From: a virus | DNA: 42,624 nucleotides | UHGV virus genome: UHGV-0204464 | Strand: one strand, 5' to 3' | Notes under the pieces: generated by a model | What the model was told of the DNA's origin: nothing | The model's input: the letters and a program-made list of their open reading frames with translations, nothing else | The model's database searches: none | In this document: piece by piece, positions 3,850 through 13,530 of the stretch | Layout of the letters: the number at the start of each line of letters is the position of its first letter | How positions within the stretch are numbered: position 1 is the first letter of the stretch | Position numbers and translations under genes: made by a program

Positions 3850-5972
3850 TGAAAGTAACTGCAAACGGTAAGACATTTACCTTCCCTGATGGTACGAGCA
3901 CCGAAGATATTGGCACCGCCATTGATGAGTATTTTGCTGGTCAGGCTGTTCAGCAACAAACAGTTAATCAGGCCAATAATGCACCAACACAGGAAGAACC
4001 ATCATTGATGCAACAAGCTGGCGATTGGCTCACTGGTGGTCAAAGTGCAGGGCAAATTGCAGAACAGGCTGGTCGTGGTCTGGTAAACATACCATTTGAC
4101 GTATTACAGGGTGGCGCAAGTCTGATTAATGCAATCAGTCAGGGGCTTGGTGGGCCAAAAGTATTGGATGATGTCTATCGTCCAGTCGATCGACCGACAG
4201 ACCATTACGCGCAAGCCGGTGAAACAATTGGCGGGTATCTCCTGCCAATTGGTACAGCGGCAAAAGCTGCTGGAGCGCCAGCAAAGCTCGCTGGAGATAT
4301 CGGTTCCGCAGGAAACATGATTGCAGGCTCTCTTGCTGATGCTGCAAATCAGGAGGGCGATTTTGCACAAAATGCTGCCATTAACGGTGGTATCAATATT
4401 GGTGCTCAAGGCGTTATTTCAGGTGCCGGGCGCGTTATTGCGCCAAGGGTTTCACAGGCTCTTGGTGGTGCAGCACTGAATTCTGCTAATGATGTTTCCA
4501 GGATGGCAAAGTCAGATGCTGGGCGTCAGTCAATTGCCAGTCAGGCCGCTAATGTGTCCGAAGATGTAGCAAAAGCAGCTGAGTCTGCTGGAATTGATAT
4601 AAACGCATTAACACCAGGAATGCGATCTGGAAGTCGTGGAATTGCACAAGCCGAAGGCGCATTGGCATCAACACCTGGAATTGTTCAGGACGCCCATCAG
4701 GCAGCATTTAACGAAATATCATCAAAGTTAAGTCGAAACCTTGATGAATTTGGGGCCACATCTGGAACGGCATCAGAAAAAAGTGCGGCTATAAAACAAA
4801 GGATTCTTCAAAATCTTGATCAGATGAAGGATGCCGAGCGCGCGGCATGGGATGACGTGCGGTCAACAATGCCAAATCAAAAAGCAAGAATGCTAAATGG
4901 TAATGCCGTTATTCAGGCAGAGCGATCTGCTGGCATACCGCTTACTCCTGAAATGAAACAGTTTGTTCAGGCAAACAATCAAGGTGGAGTAACATTTGAT
5001 GGCATGAAAGCATGGAGAGCGAAATTTGCTGATGCGGAGCAAAAATATAAGCGTAGCGGAGAGGCAAATGCGGCAAGGAGAGCAGGGGAAATACGCCGGG
5101 CAATTACTGATGATATGCGCACAATGGCGGAAAACGGCGGATTTCTTGATGACTGGCAGAAAGCTAATGATCTGTCTAAAGCGAGGTTATCAGCACAAGA
5201 GAGTGCAGAGTCTGTTTTCGGGCGTGATTTGGCAACAGATGCACTGATTACGAATGGAGTAAAATCCCTTCAATCATCGTCAGCTAAAGGTCTTAATGGT
5301 CCTGCTGGATTCCATTCTATGATCCGCGCGCTGCCAGAATCAGAGCGTGTTCCTGCTATATCATCAATGTTGCAAGATGCTATCTCGCATGGTGTACGTG
5401 GTGGCAAAGCTGATGCAGCAGGAATTAACCATATCGCAGAGATACTGACTCCACAAAATGTAAAAGCCATTAGCCGATATTCCTCAGAGCTTGGAAGAAT
5501 TGCTGATGCATATGGCACTCTTGCAAGAGCAGCAGTGAAACCTCAGCAGTATATTGAAAGAACAGGTAGAACTGCCAATGTACTACGCGATCTGGATGCT
5601 GGTTTATCCAACGTCACATCAACAGTGTTAAATGCAATTGCCAATTCAACATCAGGTGCCATTGTTGGTGGCGCTGGAGGAGGCATTGCAGGCGCTGCCG
5701 CAGGTGCTTTAGTTGGCGCTGGGTTAAAAGGCGCTGTATCTAAAATTGCCACCACACGTAGTGGTCGGTATGCGATAGAGAAAGCAGTTCAGGAAGCAAC
5801 TAAAGCAGTAAGAGCAGGCGGAAGCAAAGAAGCATTAGCGGCGGCGGAACGCAGATTTATGGCAAATAAGGCCGCCGTAAAAGCAATACGCGAGGCACTA
5901 GGAAACGAAGAGTTCCAGCGTTTAGCAAGGGCTGGAATTGTGGCATCGCTAAGCGGAATGGCACAGGAGTAA
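3846..5972 (+). CDS. Ejection protein, P22 gp16-like (longer variant)
   Basis: 708-aa ORF overlapping the previous stop; Ala/Gly-rich with Gly-rich hydrophobic segments near the C-terminus; synteny. Confidence 0.55.
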
Positions 5973-6377
5973 TTAGTCATCCATGGATGGATTGAGCTTA
6001 TCTCGTGTTGATGTGGCAATTTTCCCAACATTTTTCAACCAAGATTTTAAGAAGGATATGTCGTCCTTAATATCATGAATATCCTCATTCTTTATACGAT
6101 CAACCTTATCCTCTAAGCTCTCTATAGAACGCTCAATGCTAGACAGAGAGATTTTTAAGTCCCCTTGCTCACGTTCCAGTGAGGATTTGAGAGCACAATA
6201 TTCGTTTTCTAGAATTCCTATTTTTTTTGTTAGAGAGTGCATTCGATACTCATACACCAAACCAGAAACGACTAATGCAGCCAACAGAAACCATTCAAGC
6301 ACACCAACCTCCTTAGTTTTGCGCAGGATACCAGATGATAATGTGTAGTTGGAGTAGCGCGGTTGTAATGCAAGCAT
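5973..6377 (-). CDS. Membrane-anchored coiled-coil protein; candidate superinfection-exclusion moron (sieA position)
   Basis: 134-aa ORF antisense to the late operon; one TM-like segment (LEWFLLAALVVSGLV) followed by a heptad-rich coiled coil; AT-rich; start codon uncertain. Confidence 0.45.
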   Translation of the reverse strand: MLALQPRYSNYTLSSGILRKTKEVGVLEWFLLAALVVSGLVYEYRMHSLTKKIGILENEYCALKSSLEREQGDLKISLSSIERSIESLEDKVDRIKNEDIHDIKDDISFLKSWLKNVGKIATSTRDKLNPSMDD

Positions 6378-7452: not shown

Positions 7453-7479
7453 AAAAACCCACCGTCAGGTGGGTTTTTT
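7453..7479. terminator. Bidirectional rho-independent terminator
   Basis: AAAAACCCACC-GTCA-GGTGGGTTTTTT: 7-bp GC-rich stem flanked by A-run and T-run; sits between convergent genes. Confidence 0.7.
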
Positions 7480-7504: not shown

Positions 7505-8041
7505 TCAAACAACCCACCAGTTTGCCTGATTGGATACCAGCCTTGCAGTTTTTATGGAATTAATTATGCCATGCTCAAGAGCCTTGTTAGCATCCAAAAT
7601 GGTCGAGTCTGCTATCAGGGATGCCCACCTAATATGGGTTCCGATGTCGATATTGAACGTCTCAACGAAGCGATCAAGATCGTTATCGAGGCATTTCCCG
7701 TACTCTCTCAATCTGGCATGGTCGGCGGCTGGGGAGGCAAAGCACCATAATAGAGGATGTAACAGGAATCTTGATAATGGGTTTGCGAAACGTTCTGAGC
7801 CAGCCAGGAAAACGATATTAGCTATGGATTCAACATTGCTTATGTTGTGAGTTCTAACGGTAACAGGGAGTGACTTAAGAAAGTTATACGCAGTAAAGCC
7901 AGCGGCTGTTTCCCCTCCCTGACTTGATATATGGATATTTAATTCAGTTGCGCCTTGAGATAATGCGGTGAGACAGTGGTTCTGAAGTTGCCCAACAGTG
8001 GCAGTGTTAACGGGGCATAAGAAATGAATTGTGTGCAGCAT
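7505..8041 (-). CDS. ClpP-like (S14 family) serine peptidase homologue, translationally coupled to mnt
   Basis: 178 aa; by-eye alignment to ClpP core (IHISSQGGETAAGF vs INSPGG.ITAG; candidate Ser in NVESIAN and His in LLHPL); ATG overlaps the mnt stop (TAATG). Confidence 0.5.
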   Translation of the reverse strand: MLHTIHFLCPVNTATVGQLQNHCLTALSQGATELNIHISSQGGETAAGFTAYNFLKSLPVTVRTHNISNVESIANIVFLAGSERFANPLSRFLLHPLLWCFASPAADHARLREYGKCLDNDLDRFVETFNIDIGTHIRWASLIADSTILDANKALEHGIINSIKTARLVSNQANWWVV

Positions 8042-8295
8042 TATTTATCATCCTTGCCATAAATCTTTTTAAGTGTCTCAAACACAACGGCCTTGAACTG
8101 CTCTGCTTGCTGATCAGCCAAGCGTTCAGCTTCGTCTCGATAGCCTGCAATCGGTGATGGCTTTGAGAGAGCATCCTGAACGATTTGTAATAACTCAGAG
8201 TTCATTGACCTTCCGTTAGCCTCTGCTCTTAATTTCAATTTTTCTCTTACTTCCAAAGGCATACGGAAGTTAAAGTGCGGATCGTTTCTAGCCAT
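8041..8295 (-). CDS. mnt: Mnt repressor (ribbon-helix-helix), P22 immI
   Basis: 84-aa ORF MARNDPHFNFRMPLEVREKLKLRAEANGRSMNSELLQIVQDALSK closely matches my memory of P22 Mnt; divergent from arc. Confidence 0.85.
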   Translation of the reverse strand: MARNDPHFNFRMPLEVREKLKLRAEANGRSMNSELLQIVQDALSKPSPIAGYRDEAERLADQQAEQFKAVVFETLKKIYGKDDK

Positions 8296-8317: not shown

Positions 8318-8346
8318 TTGACATGATAGAAGCACTCTACTATATT
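8318..8346 (+). promoter_or_regulatory. Pant promoter with Arc operator
   Basis: TTGACA (8318-8323), 17-bp spacer, TATATT (8341-8346); the spacer holds ATGATAGAAGCACTCTACTAT (8323-8343), matching the P22 arc operator as I remember it. Confidence 0.75.
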
Positions 8347-8350
8347 CTCA

Positions 8351-8371
8351 ATAGGTCCACGGTGGACCTAT
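8351..8371. promoter_or_regulatory. Mnt operator (Omnt) palindrome
   Basis: Perfect palindrome ATAGGTCCACGGTGGACCTAT between mnt and arc. Confidence 0.75.
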
Positions 8372-8385
8372 ATTGTGAGGTAAAT

Positions 8386-8544
8386 ATGAAAGGAATGAGC
8401 AAAATGCCGCAGTTCAATTTGCGGTGGCCTAAAGAAGTATTGGATTTGGTGCGTAAGGTGGCGGAAGAGAACGGGCGATCTGTTAACTCTGAGATTTACA
8501 AGCGAGTGTTGGACAGCCTGAAGAGAGAGGGGATAACGGTATGA
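8386..8544 (+). CDS. arc: Arc repressor (ribbon-helix-helix)
   Basis: MKGMSKMPQFNLRWPKEVLDLVRKVAEENGRSVNSEIYKRVLDSLKREG matches P22 Arc; the track ORF (from 8323) begins inside the operator, so the internal ATG at 8386 is used. Confidence 0.85.
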   Translation: MKGMSKMPQFNLRWPKEVLDLVRKVAEENGRSVNSEIYKRVLDSLKREGITV

Positions 8545-8762
8545 GGTTTATTGAGGTTGATGAGATTGGCTATGAGAATGCACTTGGTAGAGGTAAATCT
8601 TTAGTTAACATTGATGGCATTGAATCGATAAGGAGTGGTGAATTTACGGAGATCAGAATGATGTCAGGCGGAATCATTCCTTGCCGTGATTCAGTAGAGT
8701 CAATCAAATCAAAAATGAGTGGTCAGTGGCTTTATAGCTACAGTGACTTACAAAAACAGTGA
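8541..8762 (+). CDS. Hypothetical 73-aa protein inserted between arc and ant
   Basis: ATG overlaps arc stop (ATGA); no recognisable motif; fills the arc-ant spacer. Confidence 0.4.
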   Translation: MRFIEVDEIGYENALGRGKSLVNIDGIESIRSGEFTEIRMMSGGIIPCRDSVESIKSKMSGQWLYSYSDLQKQ

Positions 8763-8825: not shown

Positions 8826-9749
8826 ATGACGAGTGTAGCAATTGCAGAACATACAATCAACGTTCCATTCCACGGAACAAATCTCTTTTTGGTCAGCATT
8901 AACAATGAACCTTACGTTCCTATGAAACCCGTTGTAGAAGGCATGGGTATGGTTTGGGCTGCTCAATTTGTTAAATTAAAACAGAGATTTGTCAAAGGTA
9001 TTTCGGAAATCGAAATACCTTCTGCTGGCGGTAAACAGTTAATGATATGCCTTGCCTTTCGTAAGTTTGCGGCTTGGCTTTCAAGCATTCAGCCAAACAA
9101 AGTCCGCCCTGAAATCCGCGACAAGGTAATCCAGTATCAGGAAGAGTGTGACGATGTGCTCTACGAGTACTGGACTAAAGGCCATGTGGTTAATCCACGC
9201 AAAGCTAAAAAGGCGTTGCCGGGGAAAATCACTACTGAACAGCAGGAAGCCATTAAACAACTCGTCATGAGTCGCGGTCAGTCTCTGCCAAAAGAAAAAC
9301 AGGCTAAGGCGATGATCACCATGTGGTCGTCACTGAAATCCCATTTTGGATGTTCGTACAAAGAAATCAGTGAGGAGCAGTTTACAGAAGCACTGTCACT
9401 TGCAGCTCGAGTTCCACTTGAAGGTGAGTTCATTGGCAAACAAGAAGAGTTACCAGCGCCAAAACTGGATATTAACTTCCCGATTTCATGGTTTGCTGAA
9501 AATGCACCTTACGCCATTATCAGGCAGCAATGCGGTGATACTGTTGCTCTTGACCGCAGCGCACTCGTTGAATGCAGTCCGGCGTATAAACTAATCAATA
9601 TTCTGACAAAAGCGGGGTATGACGTTTCAGCAGTAAGAGCTGAACTAAAAGCACTTCGCCATTTAATGGCTGAGCAAAGCTGGGCACTTAAAGAGATAGC
9701 TTCATTCGCAGCGATACGTGATAGAGCGTGCCACTCAATTAAACTTTAA
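8826..9749 (+). CDS. ant: Antirepressor Ant
   Basis: 307 aa; N-terminal AntA/KilA-N-like segment; position after mnt/arc; AGGA RBS. Confidence 0.8.
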   Translation: MTSVAIAEHTINVPFHGTNLFLVSINNEPYVPMKPVVEGMGMVWAAQFVKLKQRFVKGISEIEIPSAGGKQLMICLAFRKFAAWLSSIQPNKVRPEIRDKVIQYQEECDDVLYEYWTKGHVVNPRKAKKALPGKITTEQQEAIKQLVMSRGQSLPKEKQAKAMITMWSSLKSHFGCSYKEISEEQFTEALSLAARVPLEGEFIGKQEELPAPKLDINFPISWFAENAPYAIIRQQCGDTVALDRSALVECSPAYKLINILTKAGYDVSAVRAELKALRHLMAEQSWALKEIASFAAIRDRACHSIKL

Positions 9750-9871: not shown

Positions 9872-12817
9872 ATGAGAGACATTACAGCCAATGTGATCGT
9901 ATCGATGCCTTCGCAACTCTTCACTATGGCGCGTTCTTTTAAAGCCGTAGCTAATGGCAAAATTTATATCGGTAAAATTGACACAGATCCTGTAAATCCA
10001 GAAAACCAGATTCAGGTCTATGTGGAGAATGAAGACGGTTCTCACGTTCCTGTTTCGCAACCAATAATCATTAACGCTGCTGGATATCCTGTATATAACG
10101 GACAGATTGCCAAATTCGTTACCGTGCAAGGCCATTCTATGGCTGTTTATGATGCGTATGGTGCGCAGCAGTTCTATTTTCCTAATGTGCTGAAGTATGA
10201 CCCTGATCAGTTACGGCAGCAATTAGAAGACCCAGATGGAGCGAATAAATACCCAAAACTTCAGATAGCAAGATGGAGAGACAGTTATGATGTAAGAGGT
10301 TGGGGGGCTATTGGTGATGGTGTTCATGATGATACATCAGCTCTATCAGAATTACTTTCTGTTGCAACAGGTGGTGAAAAGATAGATGGGCGAGGGCTTA
10401 CTTTTAAAGTATCAACTCTTCCAGATGTCAGTCGATTTAAAAATGCTCGTTTTTTATTTGAGAGAATACCGGGTCAGCCTCTTTTTTATGCTTCTGAAGA
10501 TTTTATCCAGGGAGAGTTATTTAAAATTACAGATACACCGTGGTACAACGCCTGGACGCAGGATAAAACGTTTGTATATGACAATGTCATCTATGCGCCT
10601 TTTATGGCTGGAGACCGCCATGGTGTAAATAACCTCCATGTTGCATGGGTTCGCTCAGGAGATGACGGGAAGACCTGGACAACGCCGGAATGGCTTACAG
10701 ATTTACATAAAAACTATCCCACAGTTAACTATCACTGCATGAGTATGGGGGTTGTCAGAAATCGCCTTTTTGCTGTAATTGAGACGCGGACCGTGAGAGG
10801 AAATAAACTGCAGGTTGCAGAGTTGTGGGATCGCCCAATGAGTCGCAGCCTTCGCGTTTATGGTGGTATAACGAAAGCAGCAAATCAGCAAGTCGCTTAT
10901 ATTCGCATTACTGATCACGGATTATTTGCTGGTGATTTTGTCAACTTCTCAAACTCTGGTGTTACAGATGTTACCGGGAATATGACGGTGACTACTGTTA
11001 TTGATAAAAATACCTTTACAGTTACGACGCAAAATACCCAGGATGTGGATCAGAATAACGAGGGTAGATACTGGAGTTTTGGTACATCATTTCACTCGTC
11101 ACCATGGAGAAAAACCAGTCTTGGAACTATTCCTTCTTTTGTTGACGGAAGCACTCCTGTTACTGAGATTCACAGTTTTGCGACGATTAGCGATAACAGT
11201 TTTGCTGTTGGCTACCATAATGGTGATATTGGTCCACGCGAGCTTGGGATACTCTATTTCTCTGATGCTTTCGGTTCTCCTGGTAGCTTTGTTCGCAGAC
11301 GCATACCTGCAGAATATGAGGCGAATGCATCTGAGCCATGTGTAAAATATTATGATGGCATTCTGTATCTGACGACCAGGGGGACATTAAGTACTCAACC
11401 CGGTAGTTCATTGCACAGAAGCTCTGATTTAGGTACATCATGGAATTCTCTTCGCTTCCCAAATAATGTTCATCACTCAAACCTTCCTTTTGCCAAAGTT
11501 GGCGATGAGCTGATTATTTTTGGCAGTGAGCGCACATTTGGTGAGTGGGAAGGAGGAGAACCTGATAACCGTTATGCAGGAAATTATCCAAGAACATTTA
11601 TGACCAGAGTTAACGTCAATGAGTGGAGTCTGGATAATGTAGAGTGGGTTAATGTTACTGATCAGATTTATCAGGGCGGAATAGTTAACTCTGCGGTTGG
11701 TGTTGGTTCAGTTTGTATCAAAGACAACTGGCTGTACTACATTTTCGGTGGGGAAGACTTTCTAAACCCATGGAGCATAGGGGATAACAACAGAAAATAT
11801 CCTTATGTTCACGATGGTCACCCGGCTGATTTGTATTGTTTCAGGGTGAAAATTAAACAGGAAGAATTTGTTTCAAGGGATTTTGTCTACGGAGCCACTC
11901 CTAACAGAACGCTTCCTACTTTTATGTCGACGTCAGGCGTGAGGACGGTTCCTGTACCCGTTGATTTCACAGATGATGTTGCCGTCCAGTCACTGACTGT
12001 CCATGCAGGTACATCAGGACAAGTTCGCGCGGAAGTCAAACTTGAGGGTAATTACGCCATTATTGCGAAGAAAGTACCGTCTGATGATGTTACCGCTCAG
12101 AGATTAATCGTTAGCGGCGGTGAAACAACGTCTTCAGCAGATGGTGCAATGATAACGTTGCATGGTTCCAGAAGCAGTACTCCACGTCGCGCGGTATATA
12201 ACGCACTCGAACATCTTTTTGAGAACGGAGATGTTAAACCTTATCTTGATAATGTAAATGCTCTTGGTGGTCCGGGAAACAGGTTCTCGACAGTTTATCT
12301 TGGCTCCAATCCTGTGGTTACCAGTGACGGAACATTAAAGACAGAGCCGGTCTCTCCTGACGAAACATTGCTGGATGCCTGGGGTGACGTCAGGTATATC
12401 GCTTATAAATGGCTGAACGCTGTCGCTATAAAGGGGGAAGAAGGGGCGAGGATACATCATGGTGTAATCGCGCAGCAACTTCGTGATGTTCTTATTTCTC
12501 ACGGACTCATGGAAGAAGAAAGCACAACATGCCGCTATGCGTTTCTTTGCTATGACGATTATCCCGCAGTATATGATGACGTCATTACTGGCCAAAGGGA
12601 AATGCCGCTGACTGATAATGACGGGAGCATCATTGTTGATGAGGATGATAATCCAGTGATGGTAATGGAAGACATCATTGAGCGCGTTGAAATAACGCCA
12701 GCAGGATCTAGATGGGGGGTCAGGCCTGATCTCTTATTCTATATCGAGGCGGCATGGCAGCGCAGAGAAATGGATAAGATAAAAGCTAGGTTAGACTTAA
12801 TAGAAGGGAAGCACTAA
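9872..12817 (+). CDS. Chimeric tailspike: P22-type head-binding N-terminus fused to sialidase/endosialidase-like domain with C-terminal autochaperone-like segment
   Basis: 981 aa; first ~115 aa ([45 protein letters not shown]) match the P22 gp9 N-terminus; Asp-box motifs SGDDGKTW and SSDLGTSW; C-terminal HHGVIAQQL region resembles endosialidase/T5 pb1-type intramolecular chaperone domains. Confidence 0.8.
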
Positions 12818-12962
12818 ATGTTTCGTTGGCGTCAAAAATATGAACTGCTCACATAAAGAAGTAAGTACATTGGCAAAAAACATTGACGTCAACGAAATTA
12901 AATATAAAACATCATGCAGACATATTACCAATATTAATATAAGGTAATAAAAATATAATTTA

Positions 12963-12990
12963 CAAAAAAGGCCCGTTGGAAGCGACGGGC
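12963..12990 (-). terminator. Candidate minus-strand rho-independent terminator
   Basis: GCCCGT..ACGGGC hairpin (12971-12990) with a T-run on the minus strand (plus AAAAAAG 12964-12970). Confidence 0.3.
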
Positions 12991-13244
12991 ATTAACCGCG
13001 GTAATGGATAAATTATTAATGTTTTTAGATTGTGAACGATATCATATTGTGCGGAAGTAGTGAAGTAACCATGTAAAATGATTGTTTCATAGCCTATGAG
13101 ACACACAAGGCTTTGTGCTCTTCGATAGTTGTTAAGGCGGATCACTCTACCTTCTCATCAATCCAGTCCGCCCCCACTGCATCATTTCTCTGCGCTTATC
13201 GAGATACTGAGCATGGTTGTAAATTCAACTAACCCAGTTCGTTG

Positions 13245-13290
13245 ACAAAAAATTAGCGCAAGAGGACAAAAAATCACCTTGCGCTAATGC
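13245..13290 (-). promoter_or_regulatory. sib/tI-like hairpin downstream of int
   Basis: TTGACAAAAAATTAGCGCAAG..CTTGCGCTAATGC long inverted repeat matching the lambda sib/tI region. Confidence 0.6.
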
Positions 13291-13530
13291 TCTGCCTCAG
13301 GTCACTAATACTATCTAAGTAGTTGATTCATAGTGACTGGATATGTTGTGTTTTGTAGTATTATGCAGTCTATTATTTAGACTAAATCCTTCATAACATA
13401 TTGATATTTACAGTGTTTTCTGTTTCTCGTTCAGCTTTTTTATACTAAGTTGGCATTATAAAAAAGCATTGCTTATCAATTTGTTGTAACGAACAGGTCA
13501 CTATCAGTCAAAATAAAATCATTATTTGAT
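13275..13530. other. attP (lambda type) with arm-type Int sites; core at 13434-13448
   Basis: Core GCTTTTTTATACTAA at 13434-13448; arm-type CAGGTCACTAT-like repeats in both arms; adjacent to int. Confidence 0.8.

Follow-up and report, generated by a model that had tools for sequence, protein, structure and literature searches.

The stretch of DNA considered here, the UHGV virus genome UHGV-0204464 (42,624 nucleotides (nt), referred to throughout as the window, meaning the whole stretch), is a complete Escherichia coli phage genome of the CUS-3-like, P22-type group (Lederbergvirus), with a K1 endosialidase tailspike, an integrase and a C2-type repressor. In its immI region, a gene encoding a ClpP-like protein of 178 amino acids (aa) directly follows the gene for the homologue of the Mnt repressor. 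We find that this protein is a member of the short, PpClpP1-type branch of the ClpP peptidases and that its gene is phage cargo, and we discuss what such a subunit may do in a lysogen.

The ClpP-like gene occupies positions 7505..8041 of the minus strand and is annotated here as a short ClpP-family peptidase subunit (PpClpP1-like) on the basis of the listing of open reading frames (ORFs), the Pfam profile PF00574 and the solved structure 9uxt_A. Immediately upstream on the same strand lies the mnt homologue (8041..8295), whose 84-aa product combines a ribbon-helix-helix (RHH) domain with the Mnt C-terminal domain (Pfam Arc, 3.4e-27; Repressor_Mnt, 3.8e-12). The two reading frames share 1 nt within the motif TAATG (8039..8043, minus strand; CATTA on the plus strand), in which the mnt stop codon TAA covers 8043-8041 and the ATG of the ClpP-like gene 8041-8039, as had been noticed in the original prediction, an earlier reading of this locus made from the sequence alone. 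This overlap, deduced from the sequence and the ORF coordinates, is a predicted signal for translational coupling, and a Shine-Dalgarno-like AAGGA (8051..8055, minus strand) can be read 9 nt 5' of the ATG, within the last mnt codons.

A consensus scan placed two candidate promoters face to face upstream of mnt, namely a Pmnt-like promoter on the minus strand (TTGAGA-17-TATCAT, 8323..8351, 10/12 consensus positions), a candidate for transcription of mnt and the ClpP-like gene, and a Pant-like promoter on the plus strand (TTGACA-17-TATATT, 8318..8346, 11/12), a candidate for transcription of the arc homologue (52 aa, 8386..8544, plus strand; Pfam Arc, 5.9e-26; start codon read from the sequence) and of the ant (antirepressor) homologue (8826..9749, plus strand; Pfam P22_AR_N, 6.9e-40). 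At the other end, a predicted bidirectional hairpin terminator (7453..7478, both strands), with an 11-bp stem, a T run behind it on the minus strand and a palindrome enclosed by A and T runs, would serve the mnt/ClpP-like transcript as well as the convergent plus-strand gene. Its Mnt-specific C-terminal domain and the facing Pant/arc/ant unit identify the 84-aa protein of the window as a bona fide Mnt.

The annotated immI region of P22 shows the same face-to-face arrangement of Pmnt and Pant, followed on the mnt side by mnt, orf59a and t_mnt and then by sieA with its own promoter 3' of mnt; there is no ClpP gene at this place in P22, in line with the earlier remark that such a gene is foreign to the canonical region. 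In CUS-3, different genes occupy the slot that holds the ClpP-like gene in the window phage. As the layout of the window mirrors the annotated P22 arrangement, the ClpP-like gene occupies the place that orf59a has in P22, second in the Pmnt operon. Within immI, Pmnt is the promoter active in lysogens; together with the start codon overlapping the mnt stop, this leads us to expect the ClpP-like protein in lysogens, alongside Mnt. Transcription of an mnt operon has been observed for Gally, an E. coli P22-like prophage of strain LF82, in which it is induced 50-fold in macrophages; the ClpP-like gene was looked for in this LF82 prophage and is absent from it.

Fold, active site and relation to PpClpP1

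The 178-aa protein matched the Pfam CLP_protease profile (PF00574) with E=2.2e-11 and 44.4 bits (gathering score 20.2) over profile positions 37-180 of 182, and scored far under every cut-off of the NCBIfam models for housekeeping ClpP. Its best match among solved structures was 9uxt_A (E=1.8e-35, residues 3-175), compared with only ~1e-7 for canonical ClpPs. An AlphaFold2 monomer model built from 62 family sequences was of high confidence (predicted local distance difference test score, pLDDT, 94.6; predicted template modelling score, pTM, 0.90), contains a long (handle) helix at residues 108-132, and superimposes on 9uxt_A with a template modelling (TM) score of 0.93 and a root-mean-square deviation of 1.6 A, and on E. 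coli ClpP with a TM score of ~0.83. Based on this model, the protein is confidently predicted to adopt the ClpP (crotonase-like) fold. The homology to the ClpP core, which the original prediction had proposed from an alignment by eye while reserving the case that no such fold would be found, is hence supported by a profile match above threshold and by the predicted structure.

Comparison with the Pectobacterium orthologue (79% identical) gave a ratio of nonsynonymous to synonymous substitution rates (dN/dS) of 0.077; as far as can be judged from the sequence comparison, the ClpP-like gene is under strong purifying selection, and this value together with the strong homology argues that the relationship to ClpP is not due to chance. 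A full HMMER scan for the short-ClpP family returned 519 representatives at E<=1e-10, and most members among the matches listed are 180-190 aa long. The prophage clade shares a conserved aromatic C-terminal tail, NWWV(x)C (window residues 174-178), which forms a short terminal strand in the model and may serve in contacts within the ring or in docking on host ClpP.

The names that this gene bears in databases point in different directions. It is called 'head maturation protease' in phiv205-1 (MN340231), 'ATP-dependent Clp protease proteolytic subunit' in RefSeq E. coli entries and 'hypothetical protein' in other phage records. The first of these names would apply if the gene were a relocated or decaying prohead (head maturation) protease of the ClpP type, and the top PHROG match of the protein (phrog_94 'head maturation protease', 7.4e-21), weak matches to the NCBIfam Clp_rel_HeadMat models, and a distant sequence similarity together with a ClpP fold shared among viral models all go in this direction. 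However, the protein reached 49.3 bits against the NCBIfam model for ClpP-related head maturation proteases (NF045542), under its curated cut-off of 120, and shows much greater similarity to the cellular short ClpP 9UXT. Moreover, the gene is under purifying selection, and it is never part of the portal/scaffold/capsid block and runs antisense to the lytic genes; in the window it sits in immI on the mnt strand. In P22-like phages, as is well established, head maturation involves no prohead protease and the scaffold is released in intact form. A displaced head protease, which the original prediction had itself named as the finding that would speak against its proposal, is on the grounds of score, strand, place and phage type scarcely credible. 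The current database names are misleading, and our analysis corrects both the label 'head maturation protease' and that of an ordinary 'ATP-dependent Clp protease proteolytic subunit'.

Alignment assigned the catalytic serine to Ser72 (codon TCC, 7826..7828, minus strand; Ser97 of E. coli ClpP and Ser73 of PpClpP1) and the catalytic histidine to His95 (codon CAT, 7757..7759, minus strand; His122 of E. coli ClpP and His96 of PpClpP1), which are the residues within NVESIAN and LLHPL that had been put forward beforehand as candidates. Both are invariant across the 62 family members. The E. coli ClpP sequence used for these comparisons, in mature numbering, had the expected residue at every numbered position queried. 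The position of the canonical triad aspartate, Asp171 in E. coli ClpP, is taken by Ser146 (codon 7604..7606, minus strand), and in 24 relatives this column is filled by Ala (13), Ser (9) or Gly (2), and by Pro in PpClpP1; the window protein accordingly possesses a Ser-His pair rather than the full Ser-His-Asp triad.

Housekeeping E. coli ClpP (MEROPS S14, PF00574) shares the fold and the aligned Ser and His with the window protein, although the identity between them is ~20-25% and Asp171 is replaced by Ser. Two further elements of E. coli ClpP are missing. First, the N-terminal axial loops, which provide gating of the pore and contacts to the unfoldase (the ClpX pore-2 contacts) and fall within the first ~36 profile positions, are absent, as positions 1-36 of the profile are without counterpart and the window protein starts at the first core strand. 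Second, the residues which we take to form the E. coli pocket for IGF-loop and acyldepsipeptide (ADEP) docking, Y60, Y62, F82, I90, L114 and L189, align with N35, H37, S57, H65, N87 and K164 of the window protein, so that polar residues stand where ClpX and ClpA would insert their IGF/LGF loops into a hydrophobic docking pocket. Judging from its residues, the gene is an intact one for a peptidase-type subunit with a Ser-His pair, lacking both the gating loops and the unfoldase pocket.

The structure 9UXT is that of PpClpP1 from Pseudomonas plecoglossicida (PLoS Pathog 2026; PMC12900304), and it provides, very recently and from a chromosomal gene, the first structure and biochemistry of the short ClpP branch. 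The N-terminus of PpClpP1 is truncated, its homotetradecamer has an unusually wide axial pore of 42.7 A, and at its 'Ser73-His96-Pro' site activity depends on the Ser and His but not on the third residue (PMC12900304); this proline is numbered Pro151 in the paper and is residue 150 by chain count in our alignment. Its peptidase activity is 13-fold under that of the canonical paralogue, it degrades neither casein nor ssrA-tagged green fluorescent protein (GFP-ssrA) when alone, it is not stabilised by ADEP in differential scanning fluorimetry, and it does not interact with ClpX (PMC12900304). When combined with canonical ClpP, it assembles into a stable heterotetradecamer in which both the peptidase and the ClpX-dependent activity are higher; phages are nowhere mentioned in this study (PMC12900304).

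The window protein is akin to PpClpP1 in its length of ~180 aa, in an alignment over the full length, in a near-superimposable predicted fold, in the equivalent Ser and His, in a third position other than Asp, and in the lack of axial loops and of a conserved unfoldase pocket. We conclude that it belongs to the short ClpP (PpClpP1-type) branch of peptidase family S14. The two differ in that identity is ~40-50% (38% in the structural alignment), that the third position is Pro in PpClpP1 and Ser146 in the window protein, and that PpClpP1-type genes are chromosomal in Pseudomonas, whereas the window gene is carried by a phage as cargo and is linked to the gene of a lysogeny repressor. The Pseudomonas homologues (contigs L015-L020, gene at 5001-5552) have a conserved neighbourhood of KGG stress-protein and DUF6555 genes. 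This neighbourhood hints at a role in stress or stationary phase, which is not discussed in the 2026 paper (PMC12900304).

The losses described above, of the canonical Asp, the axial loops and the unfoldase pocket, together with the low intrinsic activity of PpClpP1 (PMC12900304), would also be compatible with a catalytically irrelevant decoy, i.e. a pseudo-protease, which would lower Clp proteolysis in the lysogen by poisoning host ClpP rings or sequestering them. Such a decoy is difficult to reconcile with the invariance of Ser72 and His95 in 62 members and the dN/dS of 0.077, and in PpClpP1 activity requires the Ser and His, and mixing with canonical ClpP gives a complex of raised rather than lowered activity (PMC12900304). 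Since the Ser/His pair is invariant, the gene is under purifying selection and the homologue is an active, though weak, peptidase, we disfavour a pseudo-protease and consider it unlikely. Among the functional guesses made in the original prediction, it is modulation of host ClpP that is favoured by the biochemistry of the homologue (PMC12900304).

Cargo-gene behaviour and genomic contexts

The E. coli allele forms a discrete cassette, which runs from the terminator (7454) through the ClpP-like gene to ~8080-8128 and so takes in the final 40-90 nt of mnt. This cassette is 98% identical, with values of 95-98% to other phages, and its flanks are unrelated; the remainder of the window mnt resembles that of CUS-3 (88.6%). 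The mosaic joint in the 3' end of mnt points to recombination within the conserved coding region for the Mnt C-terminal domain. Furthermore, the gene is present or absent among related phages in the manner of a moron, since CUS-3 and P22 have other genes at this place. The ClpP-like gene is a cargo gene (moron), and its cassette moves between phages. It was found in 155 of 5426 complete E. coli genomes (~3%) and in six of 50,697 phage records.

To see where relatives of the gene reside, we considered the enterobacterial and Chromobacterium homologues with readable surroundings, leaving out high-GC loci (Massilia and similar), and every one of these homologues lies in a prophage. Copies coupled to mnt occur in the E. 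coli P22-like phages phiv205-1 and EC.P3, in a prophage of extraintestinal pathogenic E. coli, in Pectobacterium and in lambdoid PhiR12 phages, and the 1-nt overlap with mnt is present in all six mnt-linked loci examined besides the window (L001, L002, L003, L014, L021 and L022). In Pectobacterium the mnt/ClpP/arc stretch is collinear with that of the window at 73% nucleotide identity. In PhiR12_1 (PV340549.1, locus L002) the whole mnt-ClpP-arc-ant block is found at 4048-6060 between the tail (tip) genes L and K, and the presence of a complete block inside a lambdoid siphovirus indicates that unrelated types of phage exchange an immI-type module with the ClpP gene in it.

Most family members are without an adjacent Arc/Mnt or other RHH gene. 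Lone antisense copies were found in the gap between lysis and terminase genes in Klebsiella, Leclercia, Citrobacter, Rahnella and E. coli, and between N and the erf/ssb genes in Proteus; in Pantoea dispersa an antisense copy lies between the tape-measure and DNA-circularisation genes, and two more Pantoea loci have a lone plus-strand copy amid a minus-strand run, with neighbours lacking a Pfam hit. Other copies adjoin baseplate genes (an Enterobacterales metagenome-assembled genome) or a Rha gene (Erwinia), or stand between tail-fibre and lysis genes (Chromobacterium). No partner gene is conserved across the contexts examined.

Lambda bor, sieB and P22 sieA are examples of lysogen-expressed genes that reside in slots of this kind. 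The ClpP-like genes share the slots and the orientation of the P22 immI accessory genes and of lysogen-expressed morons such as bor and sieB, but their product is unrelated. SieA of P22, for instance, is an inner-membrane exclusion protein (PMC10883804), whereas the product of the window gene is predicted to be a soluble peptidase with the ClpP fold; the SieA paper makes no mention of Clp (PMC10883804).

These contexts bear on two explanations that start from the coupling to mnt. One is a device specific to immI, in which the protease would remove leaky Ant or Arc or process Mnt and in this way tighten the maintenance of lysogeny. It would account for the coupling as such, for the conservation of the overlap from E. 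coli to Pectobacterium in a stretch that has remained collinear at the nucleotide identity given above, and for the travelling of mnt-ClpP-arc-ant as a module into the lambdoid PhiR12 phages. Yet most members stand alone in unrelated prophages (lysis/terminase, N/erf or tail regions), with neither an Arc nor a Mnt gene next to them, and P22, CUS-3 and Gally have immI without a ClpP-like gene. We therefore hold such a device to be improbable, slightly more so than the decoy discussed above. The other explanation is a pair resembling type II toxin-antitoxin systems, with the RHH protein Mnt as antitoxin and the ClpP-like protein as toxin. An upstream RHH gene overlapping a downstream gene is the usual layout of such systems, and Mnt weakly matches RHH antitoxin profiles (FitA-like, RelB-like). 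The obligate co-occurrence expected of a toxin and its antitoxin is nevertheless lacking, as there is no RHH partner in most prophages and in the Pseudomonas chromosomes; the upstream protein is a bona fide Mnt, and the many stand-alone copies already suggest that the gene can be expressed alone without toxicity. A toxin-antitoxin pair is in our view very improbable. The moron behaviour of the gene and its lone copies suggest instead that the job of the protein is independent of Mnt.

Proposed role in the lysogen

Considering the locus, the protein and its relatives together, we propose that the gene encodes a lysogen-expressed accessory ClpP subunit, which pairs with host ClpP and retunes host Clp proteolysis, a statement that, taken with all its parts, we judge to have about an even chance of being correct. 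According to this proposal, mnt and the ClpP-like protein would be made together in lysogens from Pmnt, by way of the coupling to mnt. By analogy to PpClpP1, the ClpP-like protein probably forms heptameric rings; these rings would not dock ClpX or ClpA, yet they could associate with host ClpP, either stacked onto its rings or mixed into them. Hybrid barrels formed in this way could be driven by host unfoldases via the face formed by host ClpP, and their activity or specificity would be altered, so that the prophage would retune the Clp proteolysis of its lysogen. The payoff would most likely lie in survival of the lysogen, either as resistance to other phages or through effects on stress responses or regulation, and it is presumably not specific to immI, since the same gene stands alone at unrelated prophage positions.

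Pairs of this kind are known among chromosomal genes. In the ClpP1/2 of Listeria, the ClpP1P2 of Mycobacterium and the ClpP1/ClpP2 of P. aeruginosa, a weak or atypical paralogue is combined with a canonical ring and the unfoldase acts on one face, and two structures of such two-paralogue ClpPs, 4ryf and 4u0g, were among the fold matches of our model. In these systems, however, both subunits are chromosomal and full-length, whereas the subunit of the window would be supplied by a prophage, and its pairing with host ClpP is what we propose by analogy.

Several observations weigh against the accessory subunit. The pairing step would rest on one homologue at ~40-50% identity and carries the main uncertainty. 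This homologue, PpClpP1, is chromosomal, lies in a stress-gene neighbourhood and is no phage gene, and owing to its low identity and its origin in a Pseudomonas chromosome the partner relationships may not transfer; in addition, the third catalytic position is Ser in the window protein and Pro in PpClpP1. Scans for promoters and terminators 5' of four stand-alone relatives performed overall no better than on shuffled sequence, and one good promoter and terminator pair was obtained, in Klebsiella only. A search of PADLOC-DB 2.0 returned no defence family at E<=1 for the ClpP-like protein. Finally, a wide-pore homo-oligomer acting on its own would be equally compatible with the residues of the protein.

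The last point leads to an autonomous, unfoldase-independent protease, which would degrade unstructured or incoming proteins of superinfecting phages, or host proteins, with a wide-pore 14-mer of its own and would act as a single-gene exclusion or abortive-infection factor without any need for host ClpP. PpClpP1 does form a homotetradecamer with an open pore of 42.7 A and measurable peptidase activity (PMC12900304). The relatives of the window gene are placed in slots for protective genes (the mnt/sieA region, the lysis/terminase gap and the N/erf gap), have no conserved partner gene across contexts, and in some cases are accompanied among the neighbouring cargo by a YafO-family toxin. On the other side, PpClpP1 alone left casein and GFP-ssrA undegraded and had 13-fold lower peptidase activity (PMC12900304), and no PADLOC defence model was matched. 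Overall, we regard the autonomous protease as somewhat unlikely, although it is the strongest competitor of the accessory subunit. A broader form of the accessory-subunit proposal holds that temperate phages of Enterobacterales spread this single-gene subunit and that its hybrid barrels reprogram ClpXP and ClpAP, resulting in immunity to other phages or in control over regulators of prophage and host; this extension is tentative, and we doubt it more than the proposal it builds on. If it is true, it would represent an unrecognised route by which a prophage takes over a core host protease, as well as a new class of genes for lysogenic conversion or defence.

ClpXP and ClpAP control a number of proteins relevant to phages, among them lambda O, the Mu repressor, P1 Phd, RpoS and LexA fragments. 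If the proposal is correct, a prophage with a ClpP-type subunit of its own, made during lysogeny, would have a direct handle on this machinery. While the annotation in itself is ordinary, a prophage that supplies a subunit for the host ClpP machine is unexplored biology, and the role suggested here is concrete and easily testable in phage and host systems that are genetically tractable.

In the literature on ClpP-like prophage genes, exclusion, defence and morons, we found nothing about the ClpP-like gene, and the sole mention of a prophage-encoded clpP concerned a Staphylococcus prophage, for which a clpP homologue was merely noted. As far as the searchable literature shows, the phage-borne clade of the short ClpP branch, its behaviour as cargo of lysogen slots and its coupling to Mnt are undescribed. 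The chromosomal Pseudomonas genes have a sister clade which, in all enterobacterial and Chromobacterium loci examined, is carried only by prophages.

Neighbouring genes in the immI and tailspike regions

Further differences from P22 and CUS-3 were observed around the locus. The tailspike region (9872-13520) encodes a K1 endosialidase of 981 aa, as in CUS-3; a tandem-repeat search across the whole window found no heptanucleotide repeat array like that of the CUS-3 neuO poly-psi. Between arc and ant, where P22 holds only the sar antisense RNA, the window contains an ORF of 73 aa on the plus strand (8541-8762), whose ATG overlaps the arc stop codon (ATGA) and which matches phrog_11805, a family of unknown function (2.8e-53). 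Minus-strand positions 8792-8761 contain a strong hairpin and then a T run, and could be a terminator of the sar type.

The region corresponding to the sieA slot of P22 (5973-7451) is occupied in the window by two genes instead, a minus-strand ORF of 134 aa without a Pfam match and a plus-strand gene with a P63C domain, which belongs to phrog_2384 (unknown function). Neither this P63C-domain gene nor the 73-aa ORF matched a defence model in PADLOC. Related E. coli prophages that carry the same ClpP cassette have a gene for a YafO-family toxin and a gene for a 188-aa protein in this slot, which looks like a hot spot for cargo or defence genes.

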